64,000 nucleotides of DNA, from positions 2,166 through 66,165 of the forward strand of contig JAADIO010000032.1 in assembly GCA_013151235.1 (NCBI GenBank), given 5' to 3'. Origin of the DNA: Deltaproteobacteria bacterium (GTDB lineage: Bacteria; CG2-30-53-67). A program made the translations under genes and the position numbers. Positions within the stretch are counted from its first letter, which is position 1; each line of letters begins with the position of its first letter. The notes beneath the pieces were generated by a model, which saw only the letters and a list, made by a program, of their open reading frames with translations, was not told the DNA's origin and ran no database searches. Below, one piece after another: positions 21,402-48,780 of the stretch.

Positions 21402-22046
21402 TCAGGAGGAGGTCTTTGTGGACCATTCTAATAGATAAGGATAGAATTTCAGAAGGAAATTTTGCAGGGTCCTCCATTGTTGTTCCGGTCTTTTCTCTAT
21501 CGGCATGGAAATCCGTACAAGCGCACCGTTGGTTCGGTTGTTCTGCAACGCGCGGCGGATCAGGTCAAACCGCTGGAGATACTCGTTTGCAATCACCCGG
21601 TTGTCCGCCTGGTACCAGTAGGCGACCAGCCGTTTGTCGGTGCCGTTTTCGATTATCATCCGGTTGATGTGAATCTTCCGGTCTCCAACCGGAACGGCAA
21701 CGACCTCCCTGCGAACCGGGGTCCAACCGCTGCCGGGATAACAGTGTAGGGGGGAGTGGATCTGTGTGCCGTTCTGCTGGGTTCGGTAGTAGCCGATGTA
21801 GAGCCAGATCGTTTGACCGTCGAGGGTATGGTAGGCCCGGTTCAGAATTGCATCGGCGCCGAGTTTTTTTAGGACGGCCGGTTTTAGGGGGATCTCTTCG
21901 CTCTGCCATTTACCGATCCGGTCCGGGAAGGTTGAAAAATTCCGGACGAGCGGAACCGGGATGGGGTGAGAAAGGGACCGACTGTAGAAAAAGACCCCGA
22001 TCAGCAGGATGAAAATCACCGAGAAATAGAGGTTGGATTTTTTCAT
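21402..22046 (-). CDS. EpsI-family exosortase-associated protein
   Basis: 214 aa. N-terminal TM anchor, then the IHSPLHCYPGSGW motif typical of EpsI. ATGA overlap with the exosortase stop. Confidence 0.8.
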   Translation of the reverse strand: MKKSNLYFSVIFILLIGVFFYSRSLSHPIPVPLVRNFSTFPDRIGKWQSEEIPLKPAVLKKLGADAILNRAYHTLDGQTIWLYIGYYRTQQNGTQIHSPLHCYPGSGWTPVRREVVAVPVGDRKIHINRMIIENGTDKRLVAYWYQADNRVIANEYLQRFDLIRRALQNNRTNGALVRISMPIEKRPEQQWRTLQNFLLKFYPYLLEWSTKTSS

Positions 22047-22963
22047 GATGGTTTCACCTGCTCCGGGTGTGCCGGCCGCCGATGAAACGCCTGCAGGAGT
22101 TCATTCACCCCGAATATGAGAAGCGTAGCGGTCGTATAGACCACGATCCCGGAGGTTTCGTGGAGGAATCCCTGAGCCGTGTCGGGTCCTTTGTAAACGG
22201 CGAGAAGGGCCGTGACGACAAGGCGGAGAATGTTGCTGATCACGGCTATGGGGAAGATAGCGACAACCAGGAGAGCCCGGGGAAGGAAGCGTTGCTGGGC
22301 GATGTAGGTGAAGGCGATCCCGAAGGTGAGAAGTGAGGTCAGGGAGCGCAGTCCGCTGCAGGCATCGGCGACCTCCAGGGTGGTGTTCGGAAGATAAATG
22401 ATGTTTCCTTCATGGTGGACGGTAATGTGAAGAAGGTCAATAGTGAACACCGCCCATTTCGTAGCGAAGAGTTTCATGGGGGATGCGATGGCGTAATAGA
22501 GAATGTACGGCAAGGGGATCATCAGCAGGAGATAGAGGATCGGGAATACAATCGTCTTGCTCCCTTTCTTCCCCCACATGGTCAGGAGGATTCCAAGCAG
22601 AACAATGATGAAAGAAATCCGTGTGGTAAAAAGTTCATTCCCTGCGATGCCGATCAGGTAGGTTGTAAATCCGAACAGAACGACGAACAGCCCCGGGCCG
22701 TAAGGTTCCGGCTGAATTCGTGAGATTTTTTTTCTTTTACGCCAGACGAGAAATGCCGAGATGAGAGGAACAAAGATTCCGTAACCGTAGTTCGGGTCCT
22801 GATTCCAGTCCCGCCAGAGTTCCGGAAATACGGGCGCATATAGAACAAGCAAACCGAAGCCCAGAAGGCTGAGTTGCAACGGAAAGATTTTCCGGGAGGG
22901 CGATATCTTGTCTGTCTGTACGTGCTCTGTGGCCTTCATACAGCTCCGCCCTCTCGGTTCCAT
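22043..22963 (-). CDS. Exosortase (EpsH/Xrt family transpeptidase)
   Basis: Polytopic membrane protein with the catalytic-Cys motif DACSGLRSLTSLL. It is followed by EpsI, and a PEP-CTERM substrate lies in the window. The start could instead be the internal MKATEH. Confidence 0.85.
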   Translation of the reverse strand: MEPRGRSCMKATEHVQTDKISPSRKIFPLQLSLLGFGLLVLYAPVFPELWRDWNQDPNYGYGIFVPLISAFLVWRKRKKISRIQPEPYGPGLFVVLFGFTTYLIGIAGNELFTTRISFIIVLLGILLTMWGKKGSKTIVFPILYLLLMIPLPYILYYAIASPMKLFATKWAVFTIDLLHITVHHEGNIIYLPNTTLEVADACSGLRSLTSLLTFGIAFTYIAQQRFLPRALLVVAIFPIAVISNILRLVVTALLAVYKGPDTAQGFLHETSGIVVYTTATLLIFGVNELLQAFHRRPAHPEQVKPS

Positions 22964-24167: not shown

Positions 24168-24391
24168 GAATTAATATTCCGCCCGGGTAGGGGTTGTGCT
24201 CAAGTTTCCGGGTTGCTGAGCCGATAAGAGAGATACTCAGTCGAAAAATGATGGAAGTCTATAGGAATCTTCACTGGAAATCTACGAAGTCAAGGGATCC
24301 TGCCCTATGGCTTCCGAACTCTTTCGGTTGTGCGGCAGGTCTAATAATCCCGGCTCATGATGGAGCCCGGGAAAATCAACGGAGGTGTACA

Positions 24392-25006
24392 ATGAAAAGA
24401 TTGGGAAGAACATCAGGTTTTACCCTGATCGAGATTATCGTGGTCATTGCCGTCATCGCGATCCTGGCGGCAATCATGACCCCCTCGATCATCAAAAATA
24501 TCGATGATTCCAGAATCGCACGGGCCAAGAACGATGTCCAGGTCCTGGGAGCGTCCGTTGCCGATTTCTACAAGGATACGGGAAAATGGCCGACCGATAA
24601 TGACCCGAGCGCCGGGAACAGTAACTATCTTTATGTGTTGGAGACTGTCGGCGGGACCACCCCCAGTCACAGTGGAACGGATACCAACGGCTGGACCACA
24701 TGGGGGGCCGCACGACGTGACACCTTTGAGAACCAGTTGGTTCTGAACGATCCGAAGGGAGGCGGCAATGCCTATCCGACGACCGGCGAGTTCCGATGGA
24801 AGGGACCCTATATTAACGAGATCAAGAGCGATCCGTGGGGGAACAAATACTACTGTAACGTAATCGGGCTCTGGTACGGCAGGGGCTACGAAGCCGTCTT
24901 TGTCCTTTCCGCCGGTCCCGACGGGGTCATCAATACCGATGTAAAACAGCTTATTTCTTCCAGTCCGACGCTGGGGGGGGACGATATCGGTTTCCGAATA
25001 AAATGA
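24392..25006 (+). CDS. Prepilin-type (GspG-like) pseudopilin/pilin
   Basis: MKRLGRTSG/FTLIEIIVVIAVIAILAAI is a class III signal with a conserved Glu at +5. IARAKNDVQ...GPYINEIKSDPWGNKYY...SAGPDG resembles GspG. Start set at the MKRL ATG (24392). Confidence 0.8.
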   Translation: MKRLGRTSGFTLIEIIVVIAVIAILAAIMTPSIIKNIDDSRIARAKNDVQVLGASVADFYKDTGKWPTDNDPSAGNSNYLYVLETVGGTTPSHSGTDTNGWTTWGAARRDTFENQLVLNDPKGGGNAYPTTGEFRWKGPYINEIKSDPWGNKYYCNVIGLWYGRGYEAVFVLSAGPDGVINTDVKQLISSSPTLGGDDIGFRIK

Positions 25007-25097: not shown

Positions 25098-26768
25098 ATG
25101 CCGGTAAGTACACCTCCGAAAACCCGTCCTTTAGGGGAACGTCTGATTGATGCGGGGCTTTTAACCTCCGAGCAGCTTCGCATCGCGCTGAAGGAACAGA
25201 AACGAACGAAAGAGATGCTGGGCCGGATCCTGGTCCGGCTGGGATTTACCACACAGGAGCAGATCGAGGCGGCCCTGGCGCAGGAGTCGGGGACCGTTCA
25301 GAAAAATCTCGAATTTGTCGAGATTGATCTTGATGCCGTCAAACTGATCAATGAGGAGACGGCCCGGAAATACAAACTGATTCCGGTCTCCCGGGAGGGA
25401 GAGGTGCTGACGGTTGCCATGGTCGACACCTTTGACGTGGTGGCCATTGACGAAGTCCAGAACGAGTCAGGTCTTGATGTGAACGTGATTGCCGCCTCGG
25501 AGAAGGATGTCCTGGAGGCGATCAACAAGTATTGCGGATTTTCCGGGTCCATCGATGAAGTGGTCGATCAGGCCCTTGCCGAGGGGCTGGGGCGTGATCG
25601 GGCCGACCAGGAGGCCCAGGAGGCTCCGATCATCCGCCTGGTCAATCAGTTGATCCTTCGCGGGATTAATGAAGCGGCAACGGATATTCACTTCGAACCG
25701 GACGAAAAGGTCCTGCGGATTCGTTACCGTCTGGACGGGGCCTTGCAGCAGGGGTTTCTCCTGCCCAAGCAGTTGCAGCCTTCGGTCATTGCCCGGATCA
25801 AAATCCTGGCCGACCTGAACATTGCTGAATCGCGCATCCCCCAGGACGGCAAGATCCGTTTTCAAATCGGGAAGAAAGATATCGATCTCCGTGTTTCCAC
25901 CCTTCCGACCATTTACGGGGAGAACGTGGTGATGCGGATTCTCGACAAGTCAAAGGTCCTTCTGGGGCTGGAGGACCTCGGTTTTTCCCCGCAGAATCTC
26001 GAGATTTTCACCGAGATGATTCAGCGCCCTCACGGGATCATTCTCGTCACCGGGCCCACCGGATCGGGCAAGACGACGACGCTCTACACGGCTCTTTCCC
26101 ATATCAACTCTCTGGACAAGAAGATCTGCACCCTGGAGGATCCTGTGGAATATCAGCTCTCGGTGATTCGTCAGACCCAGATTAATGAAGAGATCGGTAT
26201 GACCTTTGCCGCCGGTCTGCGCTCCTTGTTACGACAGGACCCCGATGTGATTCTTGTGGGAGAGATGCGGGATACGGAAACCGCGGAGATGGCCATCCGG
26301 GCGGCCCTGACCGGACACCTGGTCTTTTCCACCCTTCATACCAACGATGCCGCCGGCGCTCTGCCGCGGTTGATCGATATGGGGCTGGACCCTTATCTCC
26401 TGGCCTCTTCCATCATCATGGTCCTGGCCCAGCGGCTGGTCCGAAAGATCTGCCCCGACTGCAAGGAGGCCTATACGGTCCCTGCCGAAGAACTGCGGGC
26501 TCTTGGACTGGCCGAGATGGAAGGGTTTTCCTTCTACAGGGGGGCGGGCTGCGATAAGTGTAATCAGTCCGGCTATCGGGGGCGGGCGGCCATTTATGAA
26601 CTTCTTCCGGTGGATCACACCGTTCATGATCTGATTCTGCAAGGGGCTTCCTCCGTCGAGATTCAGAAATCTGCGATGTCACAGGGGATGACGACCATGC
26701 GGAACGACGGATTCAAAAAAGTAGTGGTCGGTTTGACGACCCTCGACGAAGTGATGCGCCTGACGTAA
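25098..26768 (+). CDS. GspE/PilB/MshE-family secretion ATPase with N-terminal MshEN c-di-GMP-binding domain
   Basis: 556 aa. Walker A GPTGSGKTTT, Asp box, Walker B ILVGEMRD and a tetracysteine motif (CPDC...CDKC). The N-terminal tandem 24-residue MshEN motifs are described in the findings. Confidence 0.9.
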   Translation: MPVSTPPKTRPLGERLIDAGLLTSEQLRIALKEQKRTKEMLGRILVRLGFTTQEQIEAALAQESGTVQKNLEFVEIDLDAVKLINEETARKYKLIPVSREGEVLTVAMVDTFDVVAIDEVQNESGLDVNVIAASEKDVLEAINKYCGFSGSIDEVVDQALAEGLGRDRADQEAQEAPIIRLVNQLILRGINEAATDIHFEPDEKVLRIRYRLDGALQQGFLLPKQLQPSVIARIKILADLNIAESRIPQDGKIRFQIGKKDIDLRVSTLPTIYGENVVMRILDKSKVLLGLEDLGFSPQNLEIFTEMIQRPHGIILVTGPTGSGKTTTLYTALSHINSLDKKICTLEDPVEYQLSVIRQTQINEEIGMTFAAGLRSLLRQDPDVILVGEMRDTETAEMAIRAALTGHLVFSTLHTNDAAGALPRLIDMGLDPYLLASSIIMVLAQRLVRKICPDCKEAYTVPAEELRALGLAEMEGFSFYRGAGCDKCNQSGYRGRAAIYELLPVDHTVHDLILQGASSVEIQKSAMSQGMTTMRNDGFKKVVVGLTTLDEVMRLT

Positions 26769-26784: not shown

Positions 26785-27984
26785 ATGCCCGAATATACCT
26801 ATAAAGCGAGAAATACGGAAGGCAAACTGATCAACGGTGTGATGGCTGCGGTCAACCCGGAGGATCTCTATGCAAAGCTGTCCGGGATCGGCTGTTATCC
26901 CACCGGTTTCGAGATCCGGAAGAATGTCTCCCTCGGGGTGAGGAAAAGGGTCTCACGGCGGGATCTGATTACTTTCACGGTTCATCTCGGAACCATCCTT
27001 GCCTCGGGGATCCCGATCCTCACCGGCCTGAAGGACCTGCTGGAGCAGACCGAGGTCGGGTTTTTCCGTCAGGTCATTGAAGACATCCATCGGAATATCG
27101 AGGCCGGTCTTTCCCTCTCGGCCGCGATGGCGGAGTACCCGCAGGTCTTTTCCGAACTGTATGTGGCCATGGTTTCCGCCGGGGAGAGTACCGGGAAAAT
27201 GGAGGAAACCTTCCAGAGTCTGACCTCCTATCTGGAGTGGCAGGAGGACCTGATGGGGCAGATCAAGCAGGCGACCCTTTATCCCATTGTTGTTTTCTGG
27301 GCCATCGTTGGGCTGGTGGCCCTGATCTTTACCGTGGTCCTGCCGAAATTTCTCGTTATCTTTGAAAAGAGCCATGTGGCGCTCCCCCTTCCGACCCGGA
27401 TCATTATTTCGATCAGTCATTTCATGCTCCACTCCTGGCCGATGCTGCTGTGCGGGATCTTTCTCTTTTTCCTGGCGCTGCGCTTCATCAAAGGGATTCC
27501 CGCCACCCGGATCGCCTATGACCGGCTCAAATTGATGATCCCAGTTTTCGGGGCCTTAAGTCACAAGATTATCCTGGCCCGGTTTGCGCATACCTTCAGT
27601 TCCCTGTACCGTTCCGGCGTCAATATTATTCATGTTCTGGAATTGATGGAGAAAACAACGGGCAACCGGGTTTTTGAAAGAGCGGTCGTGGAGATCCGCC
27701 AGAGGGTTCAGGAAGGACGGGGTGTTGCCGAGACGATGCGGGAGACGGGGCTCTTTCCTCCCCTGTTCGTTCGGATGGTTTCCATCGGGGAAGAGACAGG
27801 AAGCCTTGATTTTACCCTGGAGAAACTGAGCGGTTTTTACGACCGTGAGGTTCCGATGACCGTTAAAAAGGTCTTCGGTATCATGGAACCGTTGATCATT
27901 GTGATTTTGGGGGGAATCGTGGGGACGGTGGCCATGTCGGTTTTTCTGCCCCTCTACAAGATGATGAGTGTGGCCGGAGGTTAA
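26785..27984 (+). CDS. GspF/PilC/MshG-family inner-membrane platform protein
   Basis: 399 aa. Two repeated T2SS_F domains and 3 TM segments, positioned immediately after the ATPase. Confidence 0.9.
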   Translation: MPEYTYKARNTEGKLINGVMAAVNPEDLYAKLSGIGCYPTGFEIRKNVSLGVRKRVSRRDLITFTVHLGTILASGIPILTGLKDLLEQTEVGFFRQVIEDIHRNIEAGLSLSAAMAEYPQVFSELYVAMVSAGESTGKMEETFQSLTSYLEWQEDLMGQIKQATLYPIVVFWAIVGLVALIFTVVLPKFLVIFEKSHVALPLPTRIIISISHFMLHSWPMLLCGIFLFFLALRFIKGIPATRIAYDRLKLMIPVFGALSHKIILARFAHTFSSLYRSGVNIIHVLELMEKTTGNRVFERAVVEIRQRVQEGRGVAETMRETGLFPPLFVRMVSIGEETGSLDFTLEKLSGFYDREVPMTVKKVFGIMEPLIIVILGGIVGTVAMSVFLPLYKMMSVAGG

Positions 27985-27987
27985 ACG

Positions 27988-29577
27988 GTGGTTTTTTTTT
28001 CATCCAGATTGGTTGTCGGCATGGAGATCAGCGGGAACGTCATTCGTCTGGCTCTGCTCCGGCGCTTGCGAAAAAAAGATTCTCTGGAGGGGCTGATTCG
28101 ACTGGAAGCACCGTCCGACAATATCGAGGATGTCCGCCGGACGCTCACCGATGGTGTCCGCCGGAACGGTCTGACGGGAACGCCCGCAGCCATGATTCTC
28201 CAGGACCCCCGCATCCTGCACCGGGCTTTCGCCTTGCCGAAGATGTCGCAGAAAGAGATTGATGCTGTCGTTCCCTTTGAAGCACGAAAGGCCTTCGGGG
28301 TCAGGCGGGACTTCCGGATCGTTTACCATGTACATACCCGTTATCGGGAAGAAGGGGTCCCGAAGATTGAGGTCCTTGCCGCTGCGGTCCCGGGGGAGAT
28401 CGTGCAGAATGCCCTCGATCTGATTCGGGCCGCCGATCTGGTCCCGTACTATCTCATGTCCCTTCCATTTGTACAGTCGCAGCTACCTTCAGCCGCTCTG
28501 ATCTCGGAAACGGAGGAGACGGTGGCTCATCTCCATATCACCCGTATGGGGGTCGATCTGACGGTAACCCGGGGGGGGCATTTTCTCTTTTCCCGCTTGA
28601 TCCGAAAGGAGATCGACTTTTCCCGATTTGATATGACGCCGATGTCGGCGGAACCGGCCTCTTTTGAGAACGACGGCATGGAAATTCTCTCTATTGCCGA
28701 GGAGACGACCGGTGAAAAGGACGATCCTTTCGAACGTCTCTGTACGGAAATCAATCGATCCTTCCTCTATGTCAAACAACAGAACAAGGAGTCCGTAAAG
28801 CGGATTCGGCTGACCGGGGAAGGAAAAAGATTCCCGAACCTGGTGGAGCAGTTGCAACATCACTTAAAACTTCCGCTGACCGTCCTTGAAAATTTGCCGG
28901 GGCTGGATCGGCCGGTCATCTGTACGCCGGCAGCGGGAGAGGAGGGGGAATACGATCTTTGCGTGGCGGTGGCCAAAACCCCCTCGATCTTTTCCACGGC
29001 CAATCTCCTGCCGGAAGAGGAGCAGCTTGAATGGAAAAAGCGATCCGCCCAACGGATTGCAAAGGTTGCCTACATGGTGACGTCGGTCCTGGTCCTGTTT
29101 CTTTATGTGCAGCTTTCCTATCATGTGTATCATGATCAAGTGGAGGCACGGAGATTGCGGCAGGGATATGCCCGGGTGGATCACCGGTTTGAAGGGGTGC
29201 GCCGCACACTTCAGGTTCAATCCGACCGCCTGTTGAGGCGGGCGCTCTGCCGGGGACTCACTTCGGCATCCATTCCTCCGGAGGATGTTCTGGCGGCACT
29301 TGCCCTCTATGCGCCGGATACCGTTGTCCTGAAGCAGTTGGTGGTGCAAGGGGGAAGCCGACCCTTTTTCATGAGGCTGTCGGGAAGGATCGTCCTGCCC
29401 GATTATTCCGGTGGGGAGAAAGAACTGGATCACTTTTTGAATCAATGTAAAAAGACGGGTTTATTCAAGACCGTCCGGGGACGAATCGGTGCCGCTGCGG
29501 ATCAGGGGGAATCGGGACGGGTACAAGTTGCCTCCGTCGGCCGGAGGCGGATCCCGATCGAAATCGAAGGAGAATGA
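27988..29577 (+). CDS. PilM-PilN fusion (MshI-like) assembly protein
   Basis: 529 aa. An N-terminal actin-like region of ~330 aa, a single TM segment (AYMVTSVLVLFLYVQLSY), then a PilN-like periplasmic tail. GTG start. Confidence 0.6.
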   Translation: MVFFSSRLVVGMEISGNVIRLALLRRLRKKDSLEGLIRLEAPSDNIEDVRRTLTDGVRRNGLTGTPAAMILQDPRILHRAFALPKMSQKEIDAVVPFEARKAFGVRRDFRIVYHVHTRYREEGVPKIEVLAAAVPGEIVQNALDLIRAADLVPYYLMSLPFVQSQLPSAALISETEETVAHLHITRMGVDLTVTRGGHFLFSRLIRKEIDFSRFDMTPMSAEPASFENDGMEILSIAEETTGEKDDPFERLCTEINRSFLYVKQQNKESVKRIRLTGEGKRFPNLVEQLQHHLKLPLTVLENLPGLDRPVICTPAAGEEGEYDLCVAVAKTPSIFSTANLLPEEEQLEWKKRSAQRIAKVAYMVTSVLVLFLYVQLSYHVYHDQVEARRLRQGYARVDHRFEGVRRTLQVQSDRLLRRALCRGLTSASIPPEDVLAALALYAPDTVVLKQLVVQGGSRPFFMRLSGRIVLPDYSGGEKELDHFLNQCKKTGLFKTVRGRIGAAADQGESGRVQVASVGRRRIPIEIEGE

Positions 29578-29581
29578 CCCC

Positions 29582-30214
29582 ATGGAACGACTCCCCGGGG
29601 TGAAACGATTTTTGAAGACCCACCAGAACTGGGTGCAGATGACCCTTCCAGGGCTGGTGATTGCGGGGCTGGTCCTGGTTCTGATCGTTCCGAAGGTCAG
29701 GCAGTGGTATGCCCTGCAGCAGGAGATTGGAAAGGTGGGCAGGCAAATGGAACGAGTCTCGATGGATTTGGCTTCTCTCCCGCCGGAGCGGCTTCAGCGC
29801 CTTGCCCGGGCCGATGCGGACGATCGGGAACGGCTGCCCGGCCGGGGTCGGTTCTACACCTACCTGGGGCACCTCCGGGAACTGGGCCGCTCCCTGGGGA
29901 TTGATGAGATCACTTATTTTCGGGGTGCAGTGGAACGGGTCGACATGGATGAGATTCTGGCTCGTTCGACCTTCAATGAGTTGCCCATCTCTCTGGATCC
30001 GGACTCGAATGTCTTGTATGGCATTCCCGTGAAGATCCAGTTTCAGGCCCCCTACCGGACCCTCTATCGGTTTCTGAGGTCGCTCCGGGGAGGAAAACGG
30101 TTGACCGATATCCGGGAAGTGCGGGTCAAAAAAAAATCCGGATCTCTTGCGGTGGAGATGAAGATGGAACTCTATTATCTTGTGAAAAATTCGGGAAGAA
30201 AAGATGCTGCGTAA
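29582..30214 (+). CDS. PilO/MshJ-like assembly protein
   Basis: 210 aa. One N-terminal TM segment, a coiled-coil segment (QWYALQQEIGKVGRQMERV) and a periplasmic domain. Called from position and topology only. AAGGAGAA Shine-Dalgarno upstream of the ATG at 29582. Confidence 0.4.
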   Translation: MERLPGVKRFLKTHQNWVQMTLPGLVIAGLVLVLIVPKVRQWYALQQEIGKVGRQMERVSMDLASLPPERLQRLARADADDRERLPGRGRFYTYLGHLRELGRSLGIDEITYFRGAVERVDMDEILARSTFNELPISLDPDSNVLYGIPVKIQFQAPYRTLYRFLRSLRGGKRLTDIREVRVKKKSGSLAVEMKMELYYLVKNSGRKDAA

Positions 30215-30677
30215 CAAGGTCTTCTTCCTGCTCCTGATCGTGTCGGTGTTCTTCGCCGTTTACCGGAATTATACCTTTTTCCGCAAACGGTTCCATGCCA
30301 TGACACCGTCGGCGATGGCCTCTCTGCCGGTTTCGCCGGATCGGGTGCCGGGGGAGAAGAAAGAAGACAAAGTCGATGGACTCTCCACCGCCGACCGGCT
30401 CCGGTTTGCGGCGGGCGCAGGCCGGGACCCTTTTGTCCTTCCTGGAGGAGAGACTTTCGCTGTGCCGCAAGTGTCGTCGAAAACGAACCGGTTGCCCCGC
30501 CTGAACGCTGTTCTGTGGAGCCGGGGACGTCGGGTTGCCTTGTTGGATGGGGAGATCCATCAGGAAGGGGAGAATATCTCCGGACACAGGATCCTCCGGA
30601 TTGAGCCGGATCGGGTGATCCTGGCCGGTGGGGGAGGCGAGGTGATGATCGAGCTGAAAAAGGGGGAAACCCCCTGA
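30204..30677 (+). CDS. PilP/MshK-like small periplasmic protein
   Basis: 157 aa. N-terminal TM/signal anchor. The C-terminal beta-rich segment (VALLDGEIHQEGENISGHRILRIEPDRVIL) is typical of PilP/GspC HR-type domains that contact secretins. Confidence 0.35.
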   Translation: MLRNKVFFLLLIVSVFFAVYRNYTFFRKRFHAMTPSAMASLPVSPDRVPGEKKEDKVDGLSTADRLRFAAGAGRDPFVLPGGETFAVPQVSSKTNRLPRLNAVLWSRGRRVALLDGEIHQEGENISGHRILRIEPDRVILAGGGGEVMIELKKGETP

Positions 30678-30696: not shown

Positions 30697-32283
30697 TTGA
30701 AAAATATCCGTATCATCCTGCCGGGGCTTTTGCTCCTCATCCTCTGGGGATGTGCCGCCGGGAGCAAGACGATCGCAAAGCCGGCGCTTCCGGAACAATA
30801 TACGCCGAAACCTTCCGTGCAGTCGGCCCCTCCGGGGGCCGAGTATCTCCTCCCGCAGATGGCCGGAAAGGAGTCGATCAAGGGAATCGACGGAGAGCGG
30901 TTCTCCATCGCCGTGCAGGATACAAAGCTCAAGGATGTTCTCATGGTTCTGGCCCGGGGCAGCCGTTATAATATGATCGTCGATCCCGCCATCAATGAAT
31001 CCGTTACCATTGACCTGAAAAAGATGACCATGGGAGAGGCCCTGCAGGCGATTCTTTCTCCTCTGCACCTGCAGTACACGATTCGTGGGAACACGATTGA
31101 AGTTCTCCGCCCCCGAATGTCGACCCGCGTCTTCACCCTGAATTATATTACCGCCAGCCGGACCGGTGAAACCGGGTTGATTGTCAGCAGCGGTGGGAGA
31201 GGCGGGGAAAAGAGCTCCGCCGGGGACTACGGTACCGTAAAGTCGACGAACAAGGTGGACCTCTGGGCGGAGATCCGCAAAGGCCTGAACAGCATCCTTT
31301 TCGGTGGCGGCGGAGAGAATGGGAGTGGTCATCAGGAAGAGCGGCTGGTGATCAACGAGCATTCCGGGACCATTCTGGTCACGGCCCTGCCGGCGAAACT
31401 GATGGAGATCGCCGATTTTCTGGAGCGCGTCGAAGGATCGATCCAGCGGCAGGTAATGATCCAGGCCAAGATTATCGAAGTGACCCTTTCCGACGGATTC
31501 AAGGCGGGAATCGACTGGGCGGGGATTCCCAATTTGCGGGGCTCCTTCGTGGGGAACCTTACCTCGGGATTGGCTGCTGCACAACCCCTTCCCGCTTCCG
31601 TGGTACAGCATTTGAGTCCGGGTACCGGCAACTTCCAGATCGGCGCCACCAAGGGGGATATCTCCATTCTCCTCGACATGATCGCCACCCAGGGGAAGGT
31701 TCATGTCCTCTCCAGTCCGAGGATCTCGACCCTGAACAACCAGAAGGCGATTATCAAGGCGGGGCGGGAGGACACCTTCTTCACCGTGAACAAGGAAACA
31801 AATACCGAGGGAGGCGTCCTGCAGGAAAATTTCAATGTCGACCGGGAGGACTACACCATCGGCGTGGTCCTTGATGTGACGCCCCAGATCTCATCCGATG
31901 GGACGATCATCATGAATATTCATCCCAGCATCACCGATTTTGTTGAGGAAAAGACCTTCCCTCCGGGGGCTGTAGGGGTTGACATCTTGGCCAATGCGCC
32001 CGTTCTTGATGTCCGGGAAGTCGACACCATGGTCCGAGTCAAGGACGGCGAGACGATTGTGATTGCCGGTCTGATGCAGGAAAAGACCGAGGAATCGACG
32101 ACGTCCGTTCCGGTCCTGGGGGATATCCCGGTGTTCGGAAAACTGTTCCGGCGGGTGGAGAAGAAAAAGGAAAACACGGAACTGGTGATCCTGTTGCAGC
32201 CGGTTGTTGCCGTCGGCAGAAGCCCGGAAGCTGTCTCCTTTTCCTCTGGTGGGACACCTCCTTTGACTCTGAGGCAACCATGA
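30697..32283 (+). CDS. Secretin (MshL/PilQ/GspD family), lipoprotein-type
   Basis: 528 aa. Lipobox LLILWGC, N-domains, and a C-terminal secretin core (VPVLGDIPVFGKLFR...ELVILLQPVV). TTG start 6 nt after AAGGAGGA. Confidence 0.85.
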   Translation: MKNIRIILPGLLLLILWGCAAGSKTIAKPALPEQYTPKPSVQSAPPGAEYLLPQMAGKESIKGIDGERFSIAVQDTKLKDVLMVLARGSRYNMIVDPAINESVTIDLKKMTMGEALQAILSPLHLQYTIRGNTIEVLRPRMSTRVFTLNYITASRTGETGLIVSSGGRGGEKSSAGDYGTVKSTNKVDLWAEIRKGLNSILFGGGGENGSGHQEERLVINEHSGTILVTALPAKLMEIADFLERVEGSIQRQVMIQAKIIEVTLSDGFKAGIDWAGIPNLRGSFVGNLTSGLAAAQPLPASVVQHLSPGTGNFQIGATKGDISILLDMIATQGKVHVLSSPRISTLNNQKAIIKAGREDTFFTVNKETNTEGGVLQENFNVDREDYTIGVVLDVTPQISSDGTIIMNIHPSITDFVEEKTFPPGAVGVDILANAPVLDVREVDTMVRVKDGETIVIAGLMQEKTEESTTSVPVLGDIPVFGKLFRRVEKKKENTELVILLQPVVAVGRSPEAVSFSSGGTPPLTLRQP

Positions 32284-33248
32284 ATACCGGAGAATCAACG
32301 AGGGAACGGCGGGAAGGAGAAGGAGCCGGGTTGCACCTCTTCATGAACCGGAAAAGAATCCGGGGCTATGGCAGTCTCGCGCTGATGTTTCTCTTTGTCA
32401 TTGTCAGCCTGAAACTTCTCTTTCCGCCTGTGCCGGTAGGGGCTCTCGTGACGACAAACGAGCCCCTCATCCCGACGAAACCGCCGGTACAAAAAGGGGG
32501 AAAAAGGATAGACATCCCTGTGGCGGAACACCCGAAAATCGTCCGGAGAAAGCTGCCCGGGGAGTTCGCTCCTCCGGAAAAGGCGGAAGTCGGGCAGATC
32601 ACCATCTTGTCCCCGAAGCAGGCTGAAGTGAATGAGAAGACCTCCCGTAAGCTGATGGAACTTTCCACCTTTAATGAAGGAGTGGACGCGTTGGCGAGCG
32701 GAAACTACCTGGAGGCGGTGCTGAACTTCAACCGGACCCTCTCCGTTAACCCTCTCAATGTCCGGGCCTGTAACAATCTCGGGCTGGCCTTGATGGAAAC
32801 GGGAAAGGGGAAAGCCGCTGAAGAGGCCTTCCGCAAGGGGCTCGTCATCGACCCCGGGGATGTACGGTGCCTGAACAATCTTGCCCTCCTCTATATCCAA
32901 AGAGGAGAACCTGCCCGATCCCTCCCCTTGCTGGAGCGAATTGTTAAAGACCATCCGGGAGATGCCGTTGCCTGGACCAACCTGGGGGTGGCTGAAGGAA
33001 GAACAGGGAAAGCGGCTGCCGCCGAGACCGCCTACCGCCGGGCACTGAAACTGACCCCCGGGGATTACCGGGTCCATTTCAATCTTGCCCGAACCCTTGA
33101 AAAGGAGGGGCGGCTTATCGAAGCGATCTACTATTATCGGGCCTGTTTGCGGTTCCTTCCTTCGGCGGAAACCGGTCGGGCCCGGAAGGTGATCGCTCAT
33201 CTGAAACAACTCCGGTCATCCCTCACCATTCCCGCCGTCCGGAAGTAA
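32280..33248 (+). CDS. TPR-repeat protein (MshN-like position)
   Basis: 322 aa. N-terminal TM anchor, then several TPR units (AVLNFNRTLSVNPLNVRACNNLG..., AEEAFRKGLVIDPGD..., AETAYRRALKLTPGD...). ATGA overlap with the secretin stop. Confidence 0.75.
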   Translation: MNTGESTRERREGEGAGLHLFMNRKRIRGYGSLALMFLFVIVSLKLLFPPVPVGALVTTNEPLIPTKPPVQKGGKRIDIPVAEHPKIVRRKLPGEFAPPEKAEVGQITILSPKQAEVNEKTSRKLMELSTFNEGVDALASGNYLEAVLNFNRTLSVNPLNVRACNNLGLALMETGKGKAAEEAFRKGLVIDPGDVRCLNNLALLYIQRGEPARSLPLLERIVKDHPGDAVAWTNLGVAEGRTGKAAAAETAYRRALKLTPGDYRVHFNLARTLEKEGRLIEAIYYYRACLRFLPSAETGRARKVIAHLKQLRSSLTIPAVRK

Positions 33249-33556: not shown

Positions 33557-34150
33557 ATGATCAAGAAAATGTGGAAAATTACGATGGTTGCCTTCCTCGG
33601 GGTTTTATTCTTGGCGCCGGATCTTTTCGCTTTCCCGGTGCTGGGATATGTCGATCCTGGTTTCGGTTCTGGCTATTCCTTGTCGACGACAAAGGTCGGG
33701 ACGGCCACTTACACATTCAAAAATCTTGTCTCCGGATCAAACCTGAATCTTCAGTCGATTTCTCTGGATTTTGAGAAAGATGTTTTTGACATGGACAACA
33801 CCTCTCCTGTGTCGGGAAGCCTTCCTCCGGGCTGGTACTTTGCTCCTCCTATAGACCTTGGAACATATTCTTTTCAGATTACATTTACGCCCGGATTTGG
33901 AATACCGGAAGGCGGAGAGCTTTCATTCCAGATGGATTATACACTATGGGATGATGCCCTTTCCCTGGATTGGGACGAAGGGGGATACTGGGAACAAGGC
34001 TTCGGAGTGAAATATACAGGTGTGCATTTGCTTGTACCCGGCGGTTCAACTGCTCCCGTCCCGGAACCTGCGACCATGCTCTTGTTCGGGATCAGTCTCA
34101 TCACCGTTGCCGGGTATGGAAGGCATCGTATGAACCGTAACAACAGTTAG
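33557..34150 (+). CDS. PEP-CTERM sorting-domain secreted protein (exosortase substrate)
   Basis: Signal peptide MIKKMWKITMVAFLGVLFLAPDLFA. C-terminal VPEPATMLLFGISLITVAGYGRHRMNR gives the PEP motif, a TM helix and a basic tail. Strong TAAGGAGGT Shine-Dalgarno. Confidence 0.85.
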   Translation: MIKKMWKITMVAFLGVLFLAPDLFAFPVLGYVDPGFGSGYSLSTTKVGTATYTFKNLVSGSNLNLQSISLDFEKDVFDMDNTSPVSGSLPPGWYFAPPIDLGTYSFQITFTPGFGIPEGGELSFQMDYTLWDDALSLDWDEGGYWEQGFGVKYTGVHLLVPGGSTAPVPEPATMLLFGISLITVAGYGRHRMNRNNS

Positions 34151-34185
34151 GGTGCGATTTAAAAGAGAATAAGGGGCTTTTCGGG

Positions 34186-34224
34186 AAGGCGTTTACAGTG
34201 ATTGTAAGCGCCTTTTTCTTGTTT
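34186..34224 (+). terminator. Rho-independent terminator after the PEP-CTERM gene
   Basis: AAGGCGTTTACA-gtgat-TGTAAGCGCCTT (12-bp stem with one mismatch), followed by TTTTCTTGTTT. Confidence 0.7.
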
Positions 34225-34345
34225 GCCCGGCATGGTGGTAAACCCGGTTCCGGTAACCGGGACGTGACCCTGACCAGGGGAAAGACAACCGGAATCGCAA
34301 GGGAATTGCCGGCAACGGCTGGGTCTGGAGGAAGCGATAGGATGT
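34225..34345 (+). other. Candidate structured leader RNA of unknown class
   Basis: GC-rich segment with nested helices (CGGTT-ccggt-AACCG; CCGGAAT-cgcaaggga-ATTgCCGG; GACCC...GGGTC). It sits between a terminator and a GGAGGAAG Shine-Dalgarno. It resembles GEMM-I strings (GGTAAACC...GGACGTGACCC) only partially. Confidence 0.25.
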
Positions 34346-34347
34346 GA

Positions 34348-34860
34348 GTGATACATATGGACTTGATCCGGCGTCCTGGGAGGGCAAGCGTGCAAGAGAT
34401 CACGAAGTCCGATCGCTGCTTGAATTTTTTTTCCGGTTGTGATAGAAAATGCGACATGGGGGGATCTTCAAGACCGCTGACAGGACTGATGAGCTGGGAA
34501 CGGGTGGATGAACTGATTAAGCAGATCAGGTCCATAGGTCCCTGGTATATCTTTTCTCCCGCGGAAGGGGTTGATTCACTCTTTGAAGCAGGGGGGGAGG
34601 AGGCCTCTCGTTTTCTCGTCGCCCGTACGGAGGAGTTGAAAGCTCGTCCCTATGGTCCCGGATGGGTCTACGTTCATTCCCCCGATGCCCCCTCTTGGAT
34701 CAAGATCTACGATCCCTGCAAATGCGGTTCTTCCTGCAGTATCACAACTCCCCCTGCTTGGTGGGAGATGGATTTGATCGATCCTGCGGATCGAATCGCC
34801 CCCGAGAATTCTTCGATGGAAGAAAAGAAGTTCCTTCTGCACTTTTTTAAGGGCAAATGA
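34348..34860 (+). CDS. Hypothetical protein (no family recognised)
   Basis: 170-aa ORF with a GTG start. Its real start could be an internal Met. It has no TM or signal sequence and contains a CKCGSSC segment. Confidence 0.35.
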   Translation: MIHMDLIRRPGRASVQEITKSDRCLNFFSGCDRKCDMGGSSRPLTGLMSWERVDELIKQIRSIGPWYIFSPAEGVDSLFEAGGEEASRFLVARTEELKARPYGPGWVYVHSPDAPSWIKIYDPCKCGSSCSITTPPAWWEMDLIDPADRIAPENSSMEEKKFLLHFFKGK

Positions 34861-35187: not shown

Positions 35188-35634
35188 TTGAAGGAGCAAA
35201 CCGAGAACCGACAAACGAATCGAGATCGACGCCGGAAACCGACGCCGATTTTCAGTCGGCATACCTTTTTCGGTCGCAGGAAATTGAACCGTCGAAGCTC
35301 CGACAGACATTACAATTACTATGTTGATTTATACAGTGCCCGCCTTTTTCTCATCCTCCTTCTGATTGTCATCATGTCTCTCCTCGATGCCGGTTATACC
35401 TACCGGTATATCTCGATGGGCGGCAAGGAGCTGAACCCGGTCATGGACTATTTTCTGAGCCGGGGAGTTTTCTCCTTTTTTTCTTACAAGTTCGTGATGA
35501 CGGCTATCGGGGTTTTCGTCCTCTGTCTCCATAAGAACTTCCTCTTTGCCCGGAACATGATTTCCGTGATCCTGGTCAGTTATATCCTCCTCATGTTCTA
35601 CCATGTCTCCATTCTCTACGCTACGCTTCAATAA
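35188..35634 (+). CDS. Small membrane protein with Arg-rich N-terminus (DUF5658-like)
   Basis: 148 aa with a TTG start. The N-terminal NRQTNRDRRRKPTPIFSRHTFFGRRKLNRRSSDR is followed by 3-4 TM helices. Confidence 0.5.
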   Translation: MKEQTENRQTNRDRRRKPTPIFSRHTFFGRRKLNRRSSDRHYNYYVDLYSARLFLILLLIVIMSLLDAGYTYRYISMGGKELNPVMDYFLSRGVFSFFSYKFVMTAIGVFVLCLHKNFLFARNMISVILVSYILLMFYHVSILYATLQ

Positions 35635-35785: not shown

Positions 35786-35814
35786 TTGACGGGCTCGGGA
35801 AGTTCAACTATAGT
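35786..35814 (+). promoter_or_regulatory. Sigma-70-type promoter candidate for the PilZ gene
   Basis: TTGACG, a 17-nt spacer, then TATAGT. It lies ~20 nt upstream of the TTG start at 35835. Confidence 0.5.
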
Positions 35815-35834: not shown

Positions 35835-36542
35835 TTGAGCCCTTTTCCTGCCGTTTTTTCCCAATTGCAGGTCGTTTCCATGGAGTCCTTTACAAATATC
35901 GTCAAAAAGATCGATTCGGTCCTTTCGGTGAATCAGAATATTGAGATCACTTTTGACCATCCCGATTTCATGGTGGAATACAAAAGCCGGGTGGAGAGCA
36001 TTCTGACCGACGGCATTGCCGTGGCTCCACCCACACGCAGGTGTATTGACGTCGGTACCTCCTGCTGGGTCTATTTTTTGACCAAGGGACAACGCTACGG
36101 CTTTTCAAGCCGGGTGAGAGGCTATGGAAAGGAGCGGGTCGTCCTGTTGCTCCTAGCCCGCCCCCAGGAGATCCTGCGCCTTCAGCGGAGAAAATATTTC
36201 CGTGTTCCCGTCGAGATCCCTGTCGATTTCCAGGTACGGGAAGAAACAGAGACGTCTCTCCTGTCCGGTGTGATCCGCAACATCAGTTCCGGTGGTGTTC
36301 TCCTGATAGTCTCCCGGGATGTAGTTCCAGTGGGCAAAGAACTGCGGCTGCGTTTTACCCTGAGTTCCGAGATTTCCCTTACGGAGATTCCGGGAAAAAT
36401 CGTCCGTGTGGAAGAGGCGAAGAACGGAAAGAAATATGAATACGGTGTGGAGTTCATTGATGTCCATAATCGTCTCCGGGATATCATCATGCGTTTTGTT
36501 TTTAACCGCGAAATTGAGTTGAACCGTTTGAGGCGGAGATAA
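35835..36542 (+). CDS. PilZ-domain c-di-GMP receptor (YcgR-like two-domain architecture)
   Basis: 235 aa. QRRKYFRVPV (RxxxR) and RNISSGGVLL ([D/N]xSxxG) motifs in the C-terminal half, with a YcgR-N-like domain before them. The start is ambiguous (TTG at 35835 or ATG at 35880). Confidence 0.8.
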   Translation: MSPFPAVFSQLQVVSMESFTNIVKKIDSVLSVNQNIEITFDHPDFMVEYKSRVESILTDGIAVAPPTRRCIDVGTSCWVYFLTKGQRYGFSSRVRGYGKERVVLLLLARPQEILRLQRRKYFRVPVEIPVDFQVREETETSLLSGVIRNISSGGVLLIVSRDVVPVGKELRLRFTLSSEISLTEIPGKIVRVEEAKNGKKYEYGVEFIDVHNRLRDIIMRFVFNREIELNRLRRR

Positions 36543-36647: not shown

Positions 36648-38393
36648 ATGGAAGATTCTACGGGTAGTTTTACCTTTGTATTGCATGCACATCTTCCCTA
36701 TGTGGCTTCTCACGGGAAGTGGCCCCACGGTACCGACTGGCTGAATGAAGCGGCTGCCGAAACCTATCTCCCCCTGCTGAACGTATTTCACCGGCTCCTT
36801 CAGGAGGGACTCACCCCCCGGGTGACCCTCGGCATTACGCCCGTTCTGACGGAGCAATTAGCGGATCCGGGTTTTAAGGAAGAATTTAAGACCTACCTTG
36901 TCCAGAAGCGGGAAGCAGCCCGTGCCGATCAGCGGGAGTTTCAGCGGACCGGAGAAAAACATCTCCGTGAAGTTGCTCTTTACTGGGAAGAGGTCTTTGA
37001 CGCACGATTACGGGAATTCACCAAAATCTACGGGGAGGACCTGGTCGGGGCCTTCCGGTCGTTGCAGGATCGGGGGGCGATCGAGATCATCACCTGCGGT
37101 GCCACCCATGGTTATCTCCCGCTGATTGGAAGGGACGAATGTGTTCAGGCACAGATCCGGCAGGCCGTCCGTTCCTATGAACGGCATTACGGTAGGCGGC
37201 CGCGGGGAATCTGGCTGCCGGAATGTGCCTATCGGCCCCGGTATGAATGGAAACGGCCCCTGAAGGAGAATGTCAAGGATCCTGCCGTTCTTCGGAAGGG
37301 GGTGGAGGAATTCCTGGGCGAAGAGGAAATCGACTTCTTTGTGATCGATGCTCACCTCCTGCGGGGCGGGAAGGCGATTGGGGTTTATCTCGACCGGTTC
37401 GAGGGATTGCAGCGGCTCTGGGGACAGTTTGCCGACCGCTACAGCCCGACAAAGGAAAATACGGAACGTTCACCCTATCACTCTTACTATGTCGGCTCCT
37501 TCGGGGAGGAAAAAAAACGTCCTGTTTCGGTCCTCACCCGGGATCCCCGGACAGGGATTCAGGTCTGGAGTGGAGAGCACGGGTACCCCGGCAATCCGGA
37601 TTATCTCGACTTTCACAAGAAACATTTTCCCGGCGGTCACCGCTACTGGCGTGTGACCGATGCGAAAGCGGACCTGGCCGACAAGCAGCCCTACGACCCC
37701 CGGAAGGTGCCGGAGATCGTGAGTCAACAGGCGGAACATTTCGTCGAACTGGTCAGGGAGATTCTTGCCGAGGCCCGGAAGAAAGGAGTGGAACAACCGT
37801 TGTTAACGGCTCCCTACGATGCAGAACTCTTCGGTCATTGGTGGTATGAAGGACCGGAATGGCTCTATGAGGTTCTGAAAAGACTCGACCGTGATCTTGA
37901 GGTCGATTTGACGACCGGTTCCCGTTATCTTTCCCGCTGTCCGAACACTACCGTGATCTCCCTGCCGGAAGGCTCCTGGGGGGAGGGAGGGTTTCACTGG
38001 ATCTGGCTCAATGAATGGACGGAGTGGGCCTGGAAGAAAATCTACGCGGCGGAGGACCGGATGGTGGATCTGGCCGGCCGGTTCCGGGGCCGGACGGAGA
38101 TTCCCCTGGTGCGGGTCTTAAATCAGCTTGCACGGGAACTCCTGCTTCTTGAAAGCTCGGACTGGCCCTTCTTGATCAGTACTCTGAGTGCCGGGGATTA
38201 CGCCGAACTGCGAATCACTGAGCATGTGGAGGCCTTTCGAAGACTCGCCGATCTGGCGGAAAAAGTTGCGGAACGGAAGGGATTCAAAGAGGAGGAAGAA
38301 GAGATGCTGACTCTTTACGAGACACAGGACCACCTTTTTCCCGATATTGATTATCGTTGGTGGGCCGAGGTTGATTATCCGGTTCGGGCGTAG
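36648..38393 (+). CDS. GH57-family 1,4-alpha-glucan branching enzyme
   Basis: 581 aa. FTFVLHAHLPYV...GKWPHGTDWLNEAAAETYLPLL, then GAIEIITCGATHGYLPL, and a C-terminal DUF1957-like helical domain. Confidence 0.85.
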   Translation: MEDSTGSFTFVLHAHLPYVASHGKWPHGTDWLNEAAAETYLPLLNVFHRLLQEGLTPRVTLGITPVLTEQLADPGFKEEFKTYLVQKREAARADQREFQRTGEKHLREVALYWEEVFDARLREFTKIYGEDLVGAFRSLQDRGAIEIITCGATHGYLPLIGRDECVQAQIRQAVRSYERHYGRRPRGIWLPECAYRPRYEWKRPLKENVKDPAVLRKGVEEFLGEEEIDFFVIDAHLLRGGKAIGVYLDRFEGLQRLWGQFADRYSPTKENTERSPYHSYYVGSFGEEKKRPVSVLTRDPRTGIQVWSGEHGYPGNPDYLDFHKKHFPGGHRYWRVTDAKADLADKQPYDPRKVPEIVSQQAEHFVELVREILAEARKKGVEQPLLTAPYDAELFGHWWYEGPEWLYEVLKRLDRDLEVDLTTGSRYLSRCPNTTVISLPEGSWGEGGFHWIWLNEWTEWAWKKIYAAEDRMVDLAGRFRGRTEIPLVRVLNQLARELLLLESSDWPFLISTLSAGDYAELRITEHVEAFRRLADLAEKVAERKGFKEEEEEMLTLYETQDHLFPDIDYRWWAEVDYPVRA

Positions 38394-45707: not shown

Positions 45708-46070
45708 ATGAACGATATCCTTTTATGCTCATCGGATCCGATCTTCATAAAGAATCTCTACGGGATTCTCCGGGAGGACGGTTACCGTGTCGATATTGCC
45801 GGCCATGCGTCTATGGCCGTCCGGATGGTTTTTGAAAAGAGTTTTGCAGCGGTGATCCTCGATTCCGATGCTGTCGGTATGTCTTCGGGGGAGGCTGCAC
45901 GTATCATTTTGAGAGTCATCTCGGGGATCCCTGTAATTCTTGCAGGGGAAAGTCTGTTACCCGAGGGGGCGTTTTCGATCAGCAAACCTCTGGATCTGGA
46001 GGAGGTCCTGGAGGTTCTTCGAACCGTTCGTTTAATTCATTTTCCGGAAAGGAGTGTGAGCGGCCTATGA
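45708..46070 (+). CDS. Stand-alone receiver (REC)-like protein
   Basis: ~120 aa. CheY-like pattern ILLCSSD...AVILDSD...PVILAG...ISKP, including a candidate phospho-acceptor Asp and a K-P pair. Start set at MNDILL because the sigma-54 promoter lies inside the longer track ORF. Confidence 0.45.
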   Translation: MNDILLCSSDPIFIKNLYGILREDGYRVDIAGHASMAVRMVFEKSFAAVILDSDAVGMSSGEAARIILRVISGIPVILAGESLLPEGAFSISKPLDLEEVLEVLRTVRLIHFPERSVSGL

Positions 46071-47098: not shown

Positions 47099-47251
47099 GG
47101 CGAAGAGGGGGTAGTAAGTCCGTGTTGTTCAGGTCCCATTGACCTTGTGAGAGAGGGGGTTGTGATGGGTACATTCTGGGAAAATCTCAAAAATATGTTT
47201 GTGCGGACTGTTCCTCCGGGAGCAGCCGGGCAATCGCAGAAAGGAGCTGCC

Positions 47252-47698
47252 ATGGCTGACGAAAAGAAGATGACGCTGGAAGAAGTAAATCAGTATATGC
47301 AGGAAAAGTGCGGGTTCGTGCCGAGGATGTTCAAGATTATCAATACCGTGACGCCGGAGCCCGGCCGAACCTTTGCCGATTTCTACGCGAGCATTTTCGG
47401 GGAGGGCGCACTTTCCAAGAGCGTCAAGGAATTGATGTTCATGTCCGGTGGTGTCGCCTACTGTTCGCCTCGCTGCATCATTCATGTCGTACCGGCGATC
47501 AATGCCGGTGCAACGTCGGAACAGGTCTTCGAGGCGGCGTCCGTCGGGATGATCCTGGCCGGTTTTGTCCCGAACGGTCCGGGAATTCCCTATGCCTTTG
47601 AATATGCCTTGAAGTGCATTGACATCGACACGAAGTTCCGGAAGGGCGAGGAGTGGGAATACCTGCCGCCCCCGAAATTTGATCACGGGATTTACTGA
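47252..47698 (+). CDS. Carboxymuconolactone decarboxylase / AhpD-like family protein
   Basis: ~148 aa. KELMFMSGGVAYCSPRCIIHV resembles the AhpD-core Cys/His segment, though the Cys spacing is atypical. The ATG at 47252 lies 5 nt after AAGGAG. Confidence 0.5.
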   Translation: MADEKKMTLEEVNQYMQEKCGFVPRMFKIINTVTPEPGRTFADFYASIFGEGALSKSVKELMFMSGGVAYCSPRCIIHVVPAINAGATSEQVFEAASVGMILAGFVPNGPGIPYAFEYALKCIDIDTKFRKGEEWEYLPPPKFDHGIY

Positions 47699-47775
47699 GC
47701 GCTTCAGCCGCGGGAGGGGGGAATCCCCCCTCTTTTGCCCCCCTCCTGCGGATTTTACCCATTTTTAATTTAAGG

Positions 47776-48747: not shown

Positions 48748-48780
48748 TCGATAACCCTAATATCAGAAGGAGAAAACGTT

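Follow-up and report, generated by a model that had tools for sequence, protein, structure and literature searches.

In the window analyzed here, a 64,000-nucleotide stretch of contig JAADIO010000032.1 from an uncultured deltaproteobacterium, a plus-strand gene (25098..26768) encodes a 556-residue type IV filament assembly ATPase of the PilB/MshE/GspE class that carries an MshEN and a T2SSE domain. We propose that this ATPase is the hexameric assembly motor of a type IV filament machine, either a pilus or a pseudopilus, and that an MshEN (GSPII) domain, made up of its first ~150 residues, most likely binds one molecule of cyclic dimeric GMP (c-di-GMP). Based on the sequence and on a structural model, we regard a physiologically relevant interaction of the N-terminal domain with c-di-GMP as probable.

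Wang et al. (2016, PMC5013675) described the MshEN motif of 24 residues as RLGxx(L/V/I)(L/V/I)xxG(L/V/I)(L/V/I)xxxxLxxxLxxQ, with the relaxed form [RKPN]hGxxhhxx[GAS]hhxxxxhxxxhxx[QNKRYWST]. The N-terminus of the ATPase, MPVSTPPKTRPLGERLIDAGLLTSEQLRIALKEQKRTKEMLGRILVRLGFTTQEQIEAALAQE, contains two such motifs joined by a 5-residue spacer, a 53-residue unit in all. Motif I (residues 11-34, PLGERLIDAGLLTSEQLRIALKEQ; 25128..25199, +) departs from the strict motif only at position 1, where Pro11 replaces arginine, and shows no mismatch to the relaxed motif. The spacer KRTKE (25200..25214, +) has the same length as in MshE. Motif II (residues 40-63, MLGRILVRLGFTTQEQIEAALAQE; 25215..25286, +), which ends in Glu63 (25284-25286), has five strict mismatches, namely Met at position 1, Phe at 11, Thr at 12, Ile at 17, and Glu at 24; Phe at position 11 is allowed in Vibrio cholerae MshE itself (PMC5013675). 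Glycine is found at positions 3 and 10 of both motifs (Gly13 and Gly20, Gly42 and Gly49), and the hydrophobic triad residues are Leu12, Leu27, and Leu31 in motif I and Leu41, Ile56 (a conservative change), and Leu60 in motif II. The position-24 glutamine is present in motif I as Gln34 and is replaced by Glu63 in motif II, and the position-1 arginine is missing from both (Pro11 and Met40). Additionally, a basic residue, Arg10 (25125..25127, +), lies one position ahead of motif I, at "position 0".

This layout is that of V. cholerae MshE, in which the two motifs run from Arg9 to Gln32 and from Arg38 to Gln61 with a 5-residue spacer between them (PMC5013675). In a phmmer alignment, residues 10-63 of the ATPase pair with residues 8-61 of the V. 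cholerae MshEN structure 5HTL over an ungapped range at a constant offset of 2, so residue n of the ATPase corresponds to residue n-2 of MshE. The curated 53-residue NCBIfam model NF053729 ("c-di-GMP_motif") scores 63.6 bits on residues 11-62, against a cut-off of 38, and is covered over its positions 1-52. In the six-frame translation of the whole window, the strict motif minus its first residue matches once, at motif I, and none of 200 residue shuffles contains it; the relaxed motif arises by chance at 0.065 matches per shuffle. Six-frame scans of the window with the strict and relaxed motifs returned no further MshEN motif besides motif I. An earlier, sequence-only reading of this DNA had described a motif that fits except at its first position, the KRTKE spacer, a looser second copy at residues 40-63, and the V. 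cholerae MshE layout; all of this is borne out, and the coordinates 25128-25286 are exact. NF053729, Pfam, and Foldseek identify a genuine MshEN (GSPII) domain, but its description of the tandem c-di-GMP motif as "complete" goes too far, as the position-1 arginines are absent and the second motif ends in Glu63 rather than Gln.

The remainder of the protein is that of a secretion-type ATPase, with Pfam matches to T2SSE (3.2e-138) and MshEN (8.1e-16). The C-terminal alpha/beta subdomain of MshEN (PF05157) covers residues 70-149 (25305..25544, +), and the T2SSE ATPase domain (PF00437, 460.8 bits) covers residues 172-554 (25611..26759, +). All ATPase signatures are present, including Walker A (GPTGSGKT at 319), the Asp box/Walker B (DPDVILVGEMRD at 381), the His box (TGHLVFSTLH at 405), and a tetracysteine zinc motif composed of CPDC at 452 and CDKC at 485. 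Among solved structures, Geobacter PilB (5ZFR, 5TSG) is the best full-length match (5ZFR, 9e-156, residues 6-556) and has the same MshEN plus ATPase architecture; Thermus PilF and Myxococcus PilB are also among the top sequence matches. However, the spacer of Geobacter PilB is two residues longer, and thus the MshE tandem register is lost there and kept in the present ATPase. The protein passes neither the PilB equivalog TIGR02538 (623.4 bits vs the NCBIfam cut-off of 675.65) nor the GspE equivalog TIGR02533 (610.1 bits vs 630.25), and by sequence it is classed as a superfamily member (PF00437) without a PilB or GspE equivalog assignment. An identical protein (100%) in public databases, from a metagenome-assembled genome labelled "Deltaproteobacteria bacterium", already carries the Pfam MshEN tag.

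The AlphaFold2 model of residues 1-151 has a mean predicted local distance difference test (pLDDT) score of 82.8, with values above 90 over most of the helical bundle. Modelled helices at residues 12-18, 24-37, 41-48, and 53-64 make up a four-helix bundle, and this is followed by an alpha/beta subdomain of three strands and flanking helices (pLDDT 81-93 per 10-residue block over residues 71-140). When the model was compared with the PDB by Foldseek, the first-ranked match was 5HTL, the V. cholerae MshEN domain with bound c-di-GMP (E 1.2e-11, probability 1.00), and the lower matches comprised the PilF GSPII domains, the X. citri PilB N-domain, and XpsE. The comparison with the MshEN-c-di-GMP crystal structure that the sequence-only reading had called for selects that very structure as the best match, with an overall TM-score of 0.55. 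Like MshE, the ATPase combines the four-helix bundle and the alpha/beta subdomain with a T2SSE ATPase, has Gly at positions 3 and 10 and Leu at position 2 in both motifs, keeps the hydrophobic pairs at positions 17 and 21, ends motif I with Gln, and places an Arg just before motif I; the neighbouring secretin is MshL-like. Unlike MshE, it has Pro11 and Met40 for Arg9 and Arg38, Glu63 for Gln61, and Thr51 at an expected hydrophobic position, and the identity of its N-domain to MshEN is ~31%.

The residues retained are those on which binding depends in MshE. In that protein, the backbone amides of the position-3 glycines read O6 and N7 of guanine, the position-10 glycine forms a helix turn, the position-24 glutamine contacts the phosphate and the 2'-OH, and the position-1 arginine stacks on guanine. 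Mutation of Gly11 or Gly40 abolishes binding, and any single mutation in the leucine triads costs more than 10-fold, so that Gly11, Gly40, Leu10, Leu25, Leu39, Leu54, and Leu58 are the key residues whose mutation abolishes or strongly weakens binding. Their counterparts in the ATPase are Gly13, Gly42, Leu12, Leu27, Leu41, Ile56, and Leu60. Arginine at position 1 is dispensable, since the GSPII-B domain of Thermus thermophilus PilF has Lys and Leu there and binds c-di-GMP with a dissociation constant (KD) of 6 nM, improved to 2 nM by K167L (PMC11731258, PMC12207366). The PilF authors accordingly widened the position-1 consensus to (R/K/L) and reported that a large hydrophobic residue at this position raises affinity. 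Proline at position 1 also occurs in the c-di-GMP-binding GSPII-C domain (P335) and belongs to the relaxed set of Wang et al., whereas for Met, as in Met40, no published test was found in the MshEN/PilF literature examined.

GSPII-B of PilF (8PDK; Q218E, 9GLG) is a further close parallel. Its motif II, LLGRILVRKGLP-EEALYRALAEQ, is strikingly similar to MLGRILVRLGFTTQEQIEAALAQE of the ATPase, both have a hydrophobic residue in place of Arg at position 1 of motif II, and the engineered Q218E change has its natural equivalent in Glu63. The two domains differ in that motif II of PilF is one residue shorter, wild-type PilF has Gln at both motif ends, and its motif I begins with Lys rather than Pro; moreover, PilF carries three tandem GSPII domains and the ATPase one.

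Several observations weigh against binding. Relative to the relaxed motif, motif II fails at Met40 (position 1), Thr51 (position 12), and Glu63 (position 24). Glu63 is the only grave departure; the equivalent PilF mutation Q218E, made to disrupt binding, raised the KD from 6 to 460 nM, that is, weakened binding 77-fold; applied to an MshE-like baseline of 0.5 uM, such a penalty would give a value of tens of micromolar, outside the physiological range. In PilF GSPII-A, restoring every consensus residue did not produce binding, and the consensus is thus insufficient. The model agrees with 5HTL at an overall TM-score of only 0.55, with a root-mean-square deviation of 5.3 A over 137 columns. In addition, Pfam scans of ~50 open reading frames (ORFs) in the window found no GGDEF, EAL, or HD-GYP genes, so that local genetic support for c-di-GMP signaling is limited to two receptor candidates, this domain and a PilZ protein.

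One alternative is that the domain is a degenerate MshEN (GSPII) fold, which would not bind c-di-GMP at physiological levels and whose role in the ATPase would be confined to structure or to binding a partner, as in Xanthomonas XpsE or Thermus PilF GSPII-A. Its case consists of the three departures of motif II, the lack of a position-1 Arg in either motif, the cost of Glu at the phosphate-contacting position in PilF, and two precedents of the same fold found among the Foldseek matches: GSPII-A (9G1W), a near-consensus motif without binding, and XpsE (2D27, 2D28), a known non-binding homologue. On the other side, XpsE has been inactivated by changes that include G11V, G40L, L54H, L58C, I19R, and L29R, none of which has an equivalent in the ATPase, where all these residues are retained. 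In GSPII-A, the site is blocked by subdomain contacts and by an additional, N-capped turn of helix 1. In the present model, no such extension of helix 1 is predicted; Pro6, Pro7, and Pro11 together with a predicted helix start at residue 12 argue against a blockage of the GSPII-A type. Furthermore, neither the four glycines nor the hydrophobic triads have been lost, and the 120 homologues conserve them too; the NF053729 model is passed by 25 bits, and Gln34 is invariant in 120/120 homologues, which is hard to explain without a ligand. The low global TM-score would be accounted for by a different orientation of the subdomain in the model, and the global value is uninformative on the binding site.

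The single Q-to-E mutant of PilF keeps a sub-micromolar KD and was crystallized with ligand bound (PDB 9GLG), with binding via the protonated glutamate; its affinity is pH-dependent (~25 nM at pH 4.5 and ~450 nM at pH 8.5), and only the double mutant Q190E+Q218E abolished binding. Given Glu63, we expect the ATPase to bind with moderate rather than nanomolar affinity, in the sub-micromolar to micromolar range, and possibly in a pH-sensitive manner. On balance, we judge a degenerate, non-binding domain to be unlikely, albeit an alternative of some weight, and consider c-di-GMP binding by the N-domain the probable state.

To describe conservation, we used two samples: a close set of the 120 closest homologues (52-100% identity to the ATPase) and a diverse set of 125 tandem units without gaps, taken from representatives of 50%-identity clusters. 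The 53-residue unit, including the length of the spacer, is free of indels in 116 of the 120 close homologues, and the other four are N-terminally truncated. Gly13, Gly20, Gly42, Gly49, Leu12, Leu27, Leu31, Leu60, and Gln34 are invariant or nearly so (Gly13 in 116/116 ungapped rows, Gln34 in 120/120, Leu27 in 119/120), and Leu41 of motif II is also conserved. Position 1 is variable in both motifs, with L41/P30/R23/K11/M7 in motif I and R61/F17/L15/Y15/M11 in motif II. The domain is highly abundant, with matches in 16,367 representatives of 50%-identity clusters at E <= 0.001 and in 3,759 at E <= 1e-10, consistent with the more than 10,000 proteins with an MshEN domain already reported in 2016.

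The last residue of motif II behaves differently from that of motif I. Glu63 aligns with Gln218 of PilF and Gln61 of MshE, and this position is Glu in 59 and Gln in 56 of the close homologues, and Gln in 87 and Glu in 14 of the 125 diverse units. The residue switches even between close relatives (P0006 has Glu and P0007 has Gln). At the equivalent position of motif I, Glu occurs in 0/120 close and 0/125 diverse sequences. Glu at the end of motif II is therefore a recurrent natural variant. The relaxed motif of Wang et al. (PMC5013675) excludes it at position 24, and no mention of natural Glu variants at this position was found in the MshEN/PilF literature examined.

The variant co-occurs with a displaced basic residue. 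One residue ahead of motif I, Lys or Arg is found in 48/55 Glu-type vs 18/54 Gln-type units of the close set and in 13/14 vs 33/87 of the diverse set. At motif I position 1 the bias is the opposite, with Arg or Lys in 1/55 Glu-type vs 32/54 Gln-type close homologues and in 1/14 vs 54/87 diverse units. Fisher tests on these associations gave p values from 2e-4 to 5e-12; they ignore phylogeny, and the association is hence only a lead. The window ATPase fits the Glu-type pattern, with Arg10-Pro11 at one end and Glu63 at the other. In MshE, the Arg preceding motif I forms a hydrogen bond with the ligand phosphate, and in PilF the final residue of motif II lies in one phosphate pocket (Q218/L168) together with the backbone amide of position 2 in motif I. 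From these two structures, compensation of the charge of Glu63 by Arg10 is a reasonable inference. More tentatively, and with considerable doubt, the pattern may mark a natural, so far unrecognized Glu-type subclass of MshEN domains, with Gln changed to Glu in motif II, Arg changed to Pro or Leu in motif I, and a basic residue one position earlier; by analogy with PilF Q218E, such domains would bind through a protonated glutamate with lower, pH-tunable affinity. In the present lineage, the domain would gate a filament or type II secretion system (T2SS)-like machine that is divergently paired with an exosortase/exopolysaccharide (EPS) locus and has a PEP-CTERM gene behind it.

Based on the MshE and PilF structures, binding in the ATPase would proceed as follows. 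The backbone amides of Gly13-Glu14 and of Gly42-Arg43 would each recognize one guanine, and the guanines would be seated on the hydrophobic triads Leu12/Ile56/Leu60 and Leu41/Leu27/Leu31, with Pro11 and Met40 standing in for the stacking arginines. Gln34 would hold the ribose-phosphates on one side; on the other, this would be done by Glu63, probably protonated on binding and perhaps aided by Arg10. By analogy with V. cholerae MshE, Myxococcus PilB, and Thermus PilF, the bound ligand would promote ATPase function and thus filament assembly via the adjacent platform protein and the secretin. High c-di-GMP would then turn the machine on and favor pilus or pseudopilus output.

A second alternative places the c-di-GMP signal elsewhere: the nearby PilZ protein would bind the nucleotide and dock on the MshEN domain, as in the Xanthomonas PilB-PilZ-FimX system. 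The protein in question (35835..36542, +; probable start 35880) lies ~9 kb downstream of the ATPase, is YcgR-like (Pfam PilZ 1e-19, PilZNR 4.1e-11), and has the canonical motifs RRKYFR (RRxxxR) and NISSGG (NxSxxG), and the X. citri complex of the PilB N-terminal domain with PilZ (7LKM, 7LKO) is among the structural matches of our model. However, by sequence the ATPase matches MshEN (1e-16) better than the X. citri PilB N-domain (7e-07), and the PilZ protein of the window has two domains, PilZNR and PilZ. The Xanthomonas PilB partner is a single-domain PilZ protein that is not known to bind c-di-GMP itself. Moreover, a terminator-like hairpin of 16 pairs (34183-34217) separates the filament genes from the PilZ gene, a promoter-like site with 10 of 12 matches lies just upstream of the latter (35786-35814), and the gene looks to be transcribed apart from them. 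No PilZ gene was found within 10 kb of the corresponding genes in four related loci (L001-L004). We therefore rate indirect input through this protein as very unlikely. By its motifs it is predicted to be a separate c-di-GMP receptor, and the window would hold two independent candidate receptors, the ATPase N-domain and the PilZ protein.

The sequence-only reading had joined the two, holding that the PilZ protein together with the ATPase makes the machine and an "islet" likely outputs of c-di-GMP signaling. The canonical PilZ motifs agree with it, but the hairpin, the separate promoter-like site, the absence of the gene from the four related loci, and the lack of turnover genes leave this proposal weakly supported, and the PilZ protein was rejected as part of the machine and as evidence that the machine is a c-di-GMP output.

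The last alternative, a fortuitous fit to the motif by a helical, leucine-rich N-terminus, has nothing in its favor except that Leu, Gly, and Gln are generally frequent in helices, and it is refuted, to the point of being negligible, by the NF053729 score, the empty shuffles, the agreement of hidden Markov model, phmmer, and Foldseek searches on MshEN homology, and the 16,367 matching representatives.

The ATPase gene is the second of a plus-strand, 8-gene type IV filament cassette. The first gene encodes a prepilin or pseudopilin (24392..25006, +; likely start M67 of the ORF 24194-25006) with the class III signal MKRLGRTSG/FTLIE and NCBIfam matches to the GspG N-terminus and the prepilin methylation domain. 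Downstream of the ATPase lie a platform protein of the GspF/PilC family (26785..27984, +; Pfam T2SSF 1.9e-55; NCBIfam GspF 320.6 bits, under the cut-off) and a PilM-like or MshI-like protein of 529 residues (27988..29577, +; Pfam PilM_2 3.3e-08), whose position is taken by a protein of ~520-535 residues in L001-L004. They are followed by two small genes (29489..30677, +) for proteins of ~210 residues, with an uncertain start, and ~157 residues, possibly PilO/MshJ-like and MshK-like; these proteins have no Pfam or NCBIfam match, and their positional equivalents in relatives give a faint PilO or weak T2SSB match. The cassette is completed by an MshL-like secretin with an STN domain (30697..32283, +; Pfam Secretin 8.4e-43; NCBIfam pilus_MshL 246.2 bits vs the cut-off of 250.2) and by a TPR protein (32280..33248, +) that matches multiple TPR families and is the last conserved gene, present in all four related loci.

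The same order of eight genes is found in the four related loci, whose ATPases are 57-91% identical to that of the window. An MSHA-type system would combine an MshL-type secretin, an MshM AAA ATPase, an MshN TPR protein, and MshI/J/K-like components with MshE/MshG. Candidate counterparts in the cassette are the secretin, just under the pilus_MshL cut-off, the TPR protein, and the PilM-like 529-residue protein. Unlike the MSHA locus, the window cassette contains no gene for an MshM-like AAA ATPase, which is present in the related locus L002. The gene order of the cassette also differs from that of the V. cholerae msh locus. The machine may act as an adhesive pilus or as a T2SS-like exporter.

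On the minus strand, the cassette is flanked upstream by a divergent EPS locus headed by exosortase (EpsH) and EpsI genes (21402..22963, -; Pfam Exosortase_EpsH 1.2e-70, DUF3485/EpsI 1.1e-55). Besides EpsH and EpsI, this locus contains an epimerase, FemAB-like acetyltransferases, a radical SAM enzyme, glycosyltransferases, an Asn-synthase-type amidotransferase, a polysaccharide deacetylase, and a Wzy-like protein. The adjacency of cassette and exosortase genes is kept in the two closest loci, L001 and L003, but not in the more distant L002 and L004. Directly 3' of the TPR gene, a PEP-CTERM protein (33557..34150, +; Pfam PEP-CTERM 2e-05) with the C-terminus VPEPATMLLFGISLITVAGYGRHR is encoded, and the hairpin at 34183-34217 lies 3' of its gene. 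A PEP-CTERM gene occupies the same place in L003 (18635-19237, 57% identity). The window protein could be a substrate of the machine or could be co-expressed with it. Because T2SS exports GlyGly-CTERM and MYXO-CTERM proteins, export of PEP-CTERM proteins across the outer membrane by this machine may be entertained as a speculative idea. Our literature search, which was limited in scope and is not proof of novelty, found no paper on a pairing of exosortase, secretin, and c-di-GMP.

Further genes surround the PilZ gene. Directly upstream of it, a DUF5658 membrane protein with an Arg-rich N-terminus is encoded (35188-35634, +), and between the PEP-CTERM and DUF5658 genes lie two ORFs without a family match (34348-34860, +, 170 residues; 34101-34535, -, 144 residues). 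On its 3' side, a GH57-type glucan branching enzyme (36648-38393, +) and an AsmA/DUF748-family protein (38899-41169, +) are followed by a PAS-GAF-PAS histidine kinase with a sigma-54-dependent NtrC-type response regulator (41680-45574, +). This kinase/regulator pair could represent PrsK/PrsR-like regulators of the PEP-CTERM system. A corrinoid-dependent methyltransferase gene set occupies 46067-53154 (+) and comprises two URO-D/MtaA-like genes, MtrH, a B12-binding protein, a ferredoxin, and a RACo-type reductive activase.

Collectively, the N-domain of this ATPase is an ordinary further example of the well-known MshEN family, whose domain was described in 2016, and only two leads have some novelty, namely Glu at the end of motif II, which co-varies with a basic residue ahead of motif I, and the exosortase locus beside the cassette. 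That the cassette is paired with exosortase and PEP-CTERM genes offers a hint as to how PEP-CTERM proteins might be carried across the outer membrane. If the reading of Glu63 is true, this residue and its apparently compensating basic partner would be a natural case of phosphate recognition by a protonated carboxylate, so far seen only in engineered PilF mutants. For the uncultured deltaproteobacterium itself, the analysis adds a predicted point at which c-di-GMP would act on a conserved cassette for a filament or for secretion.

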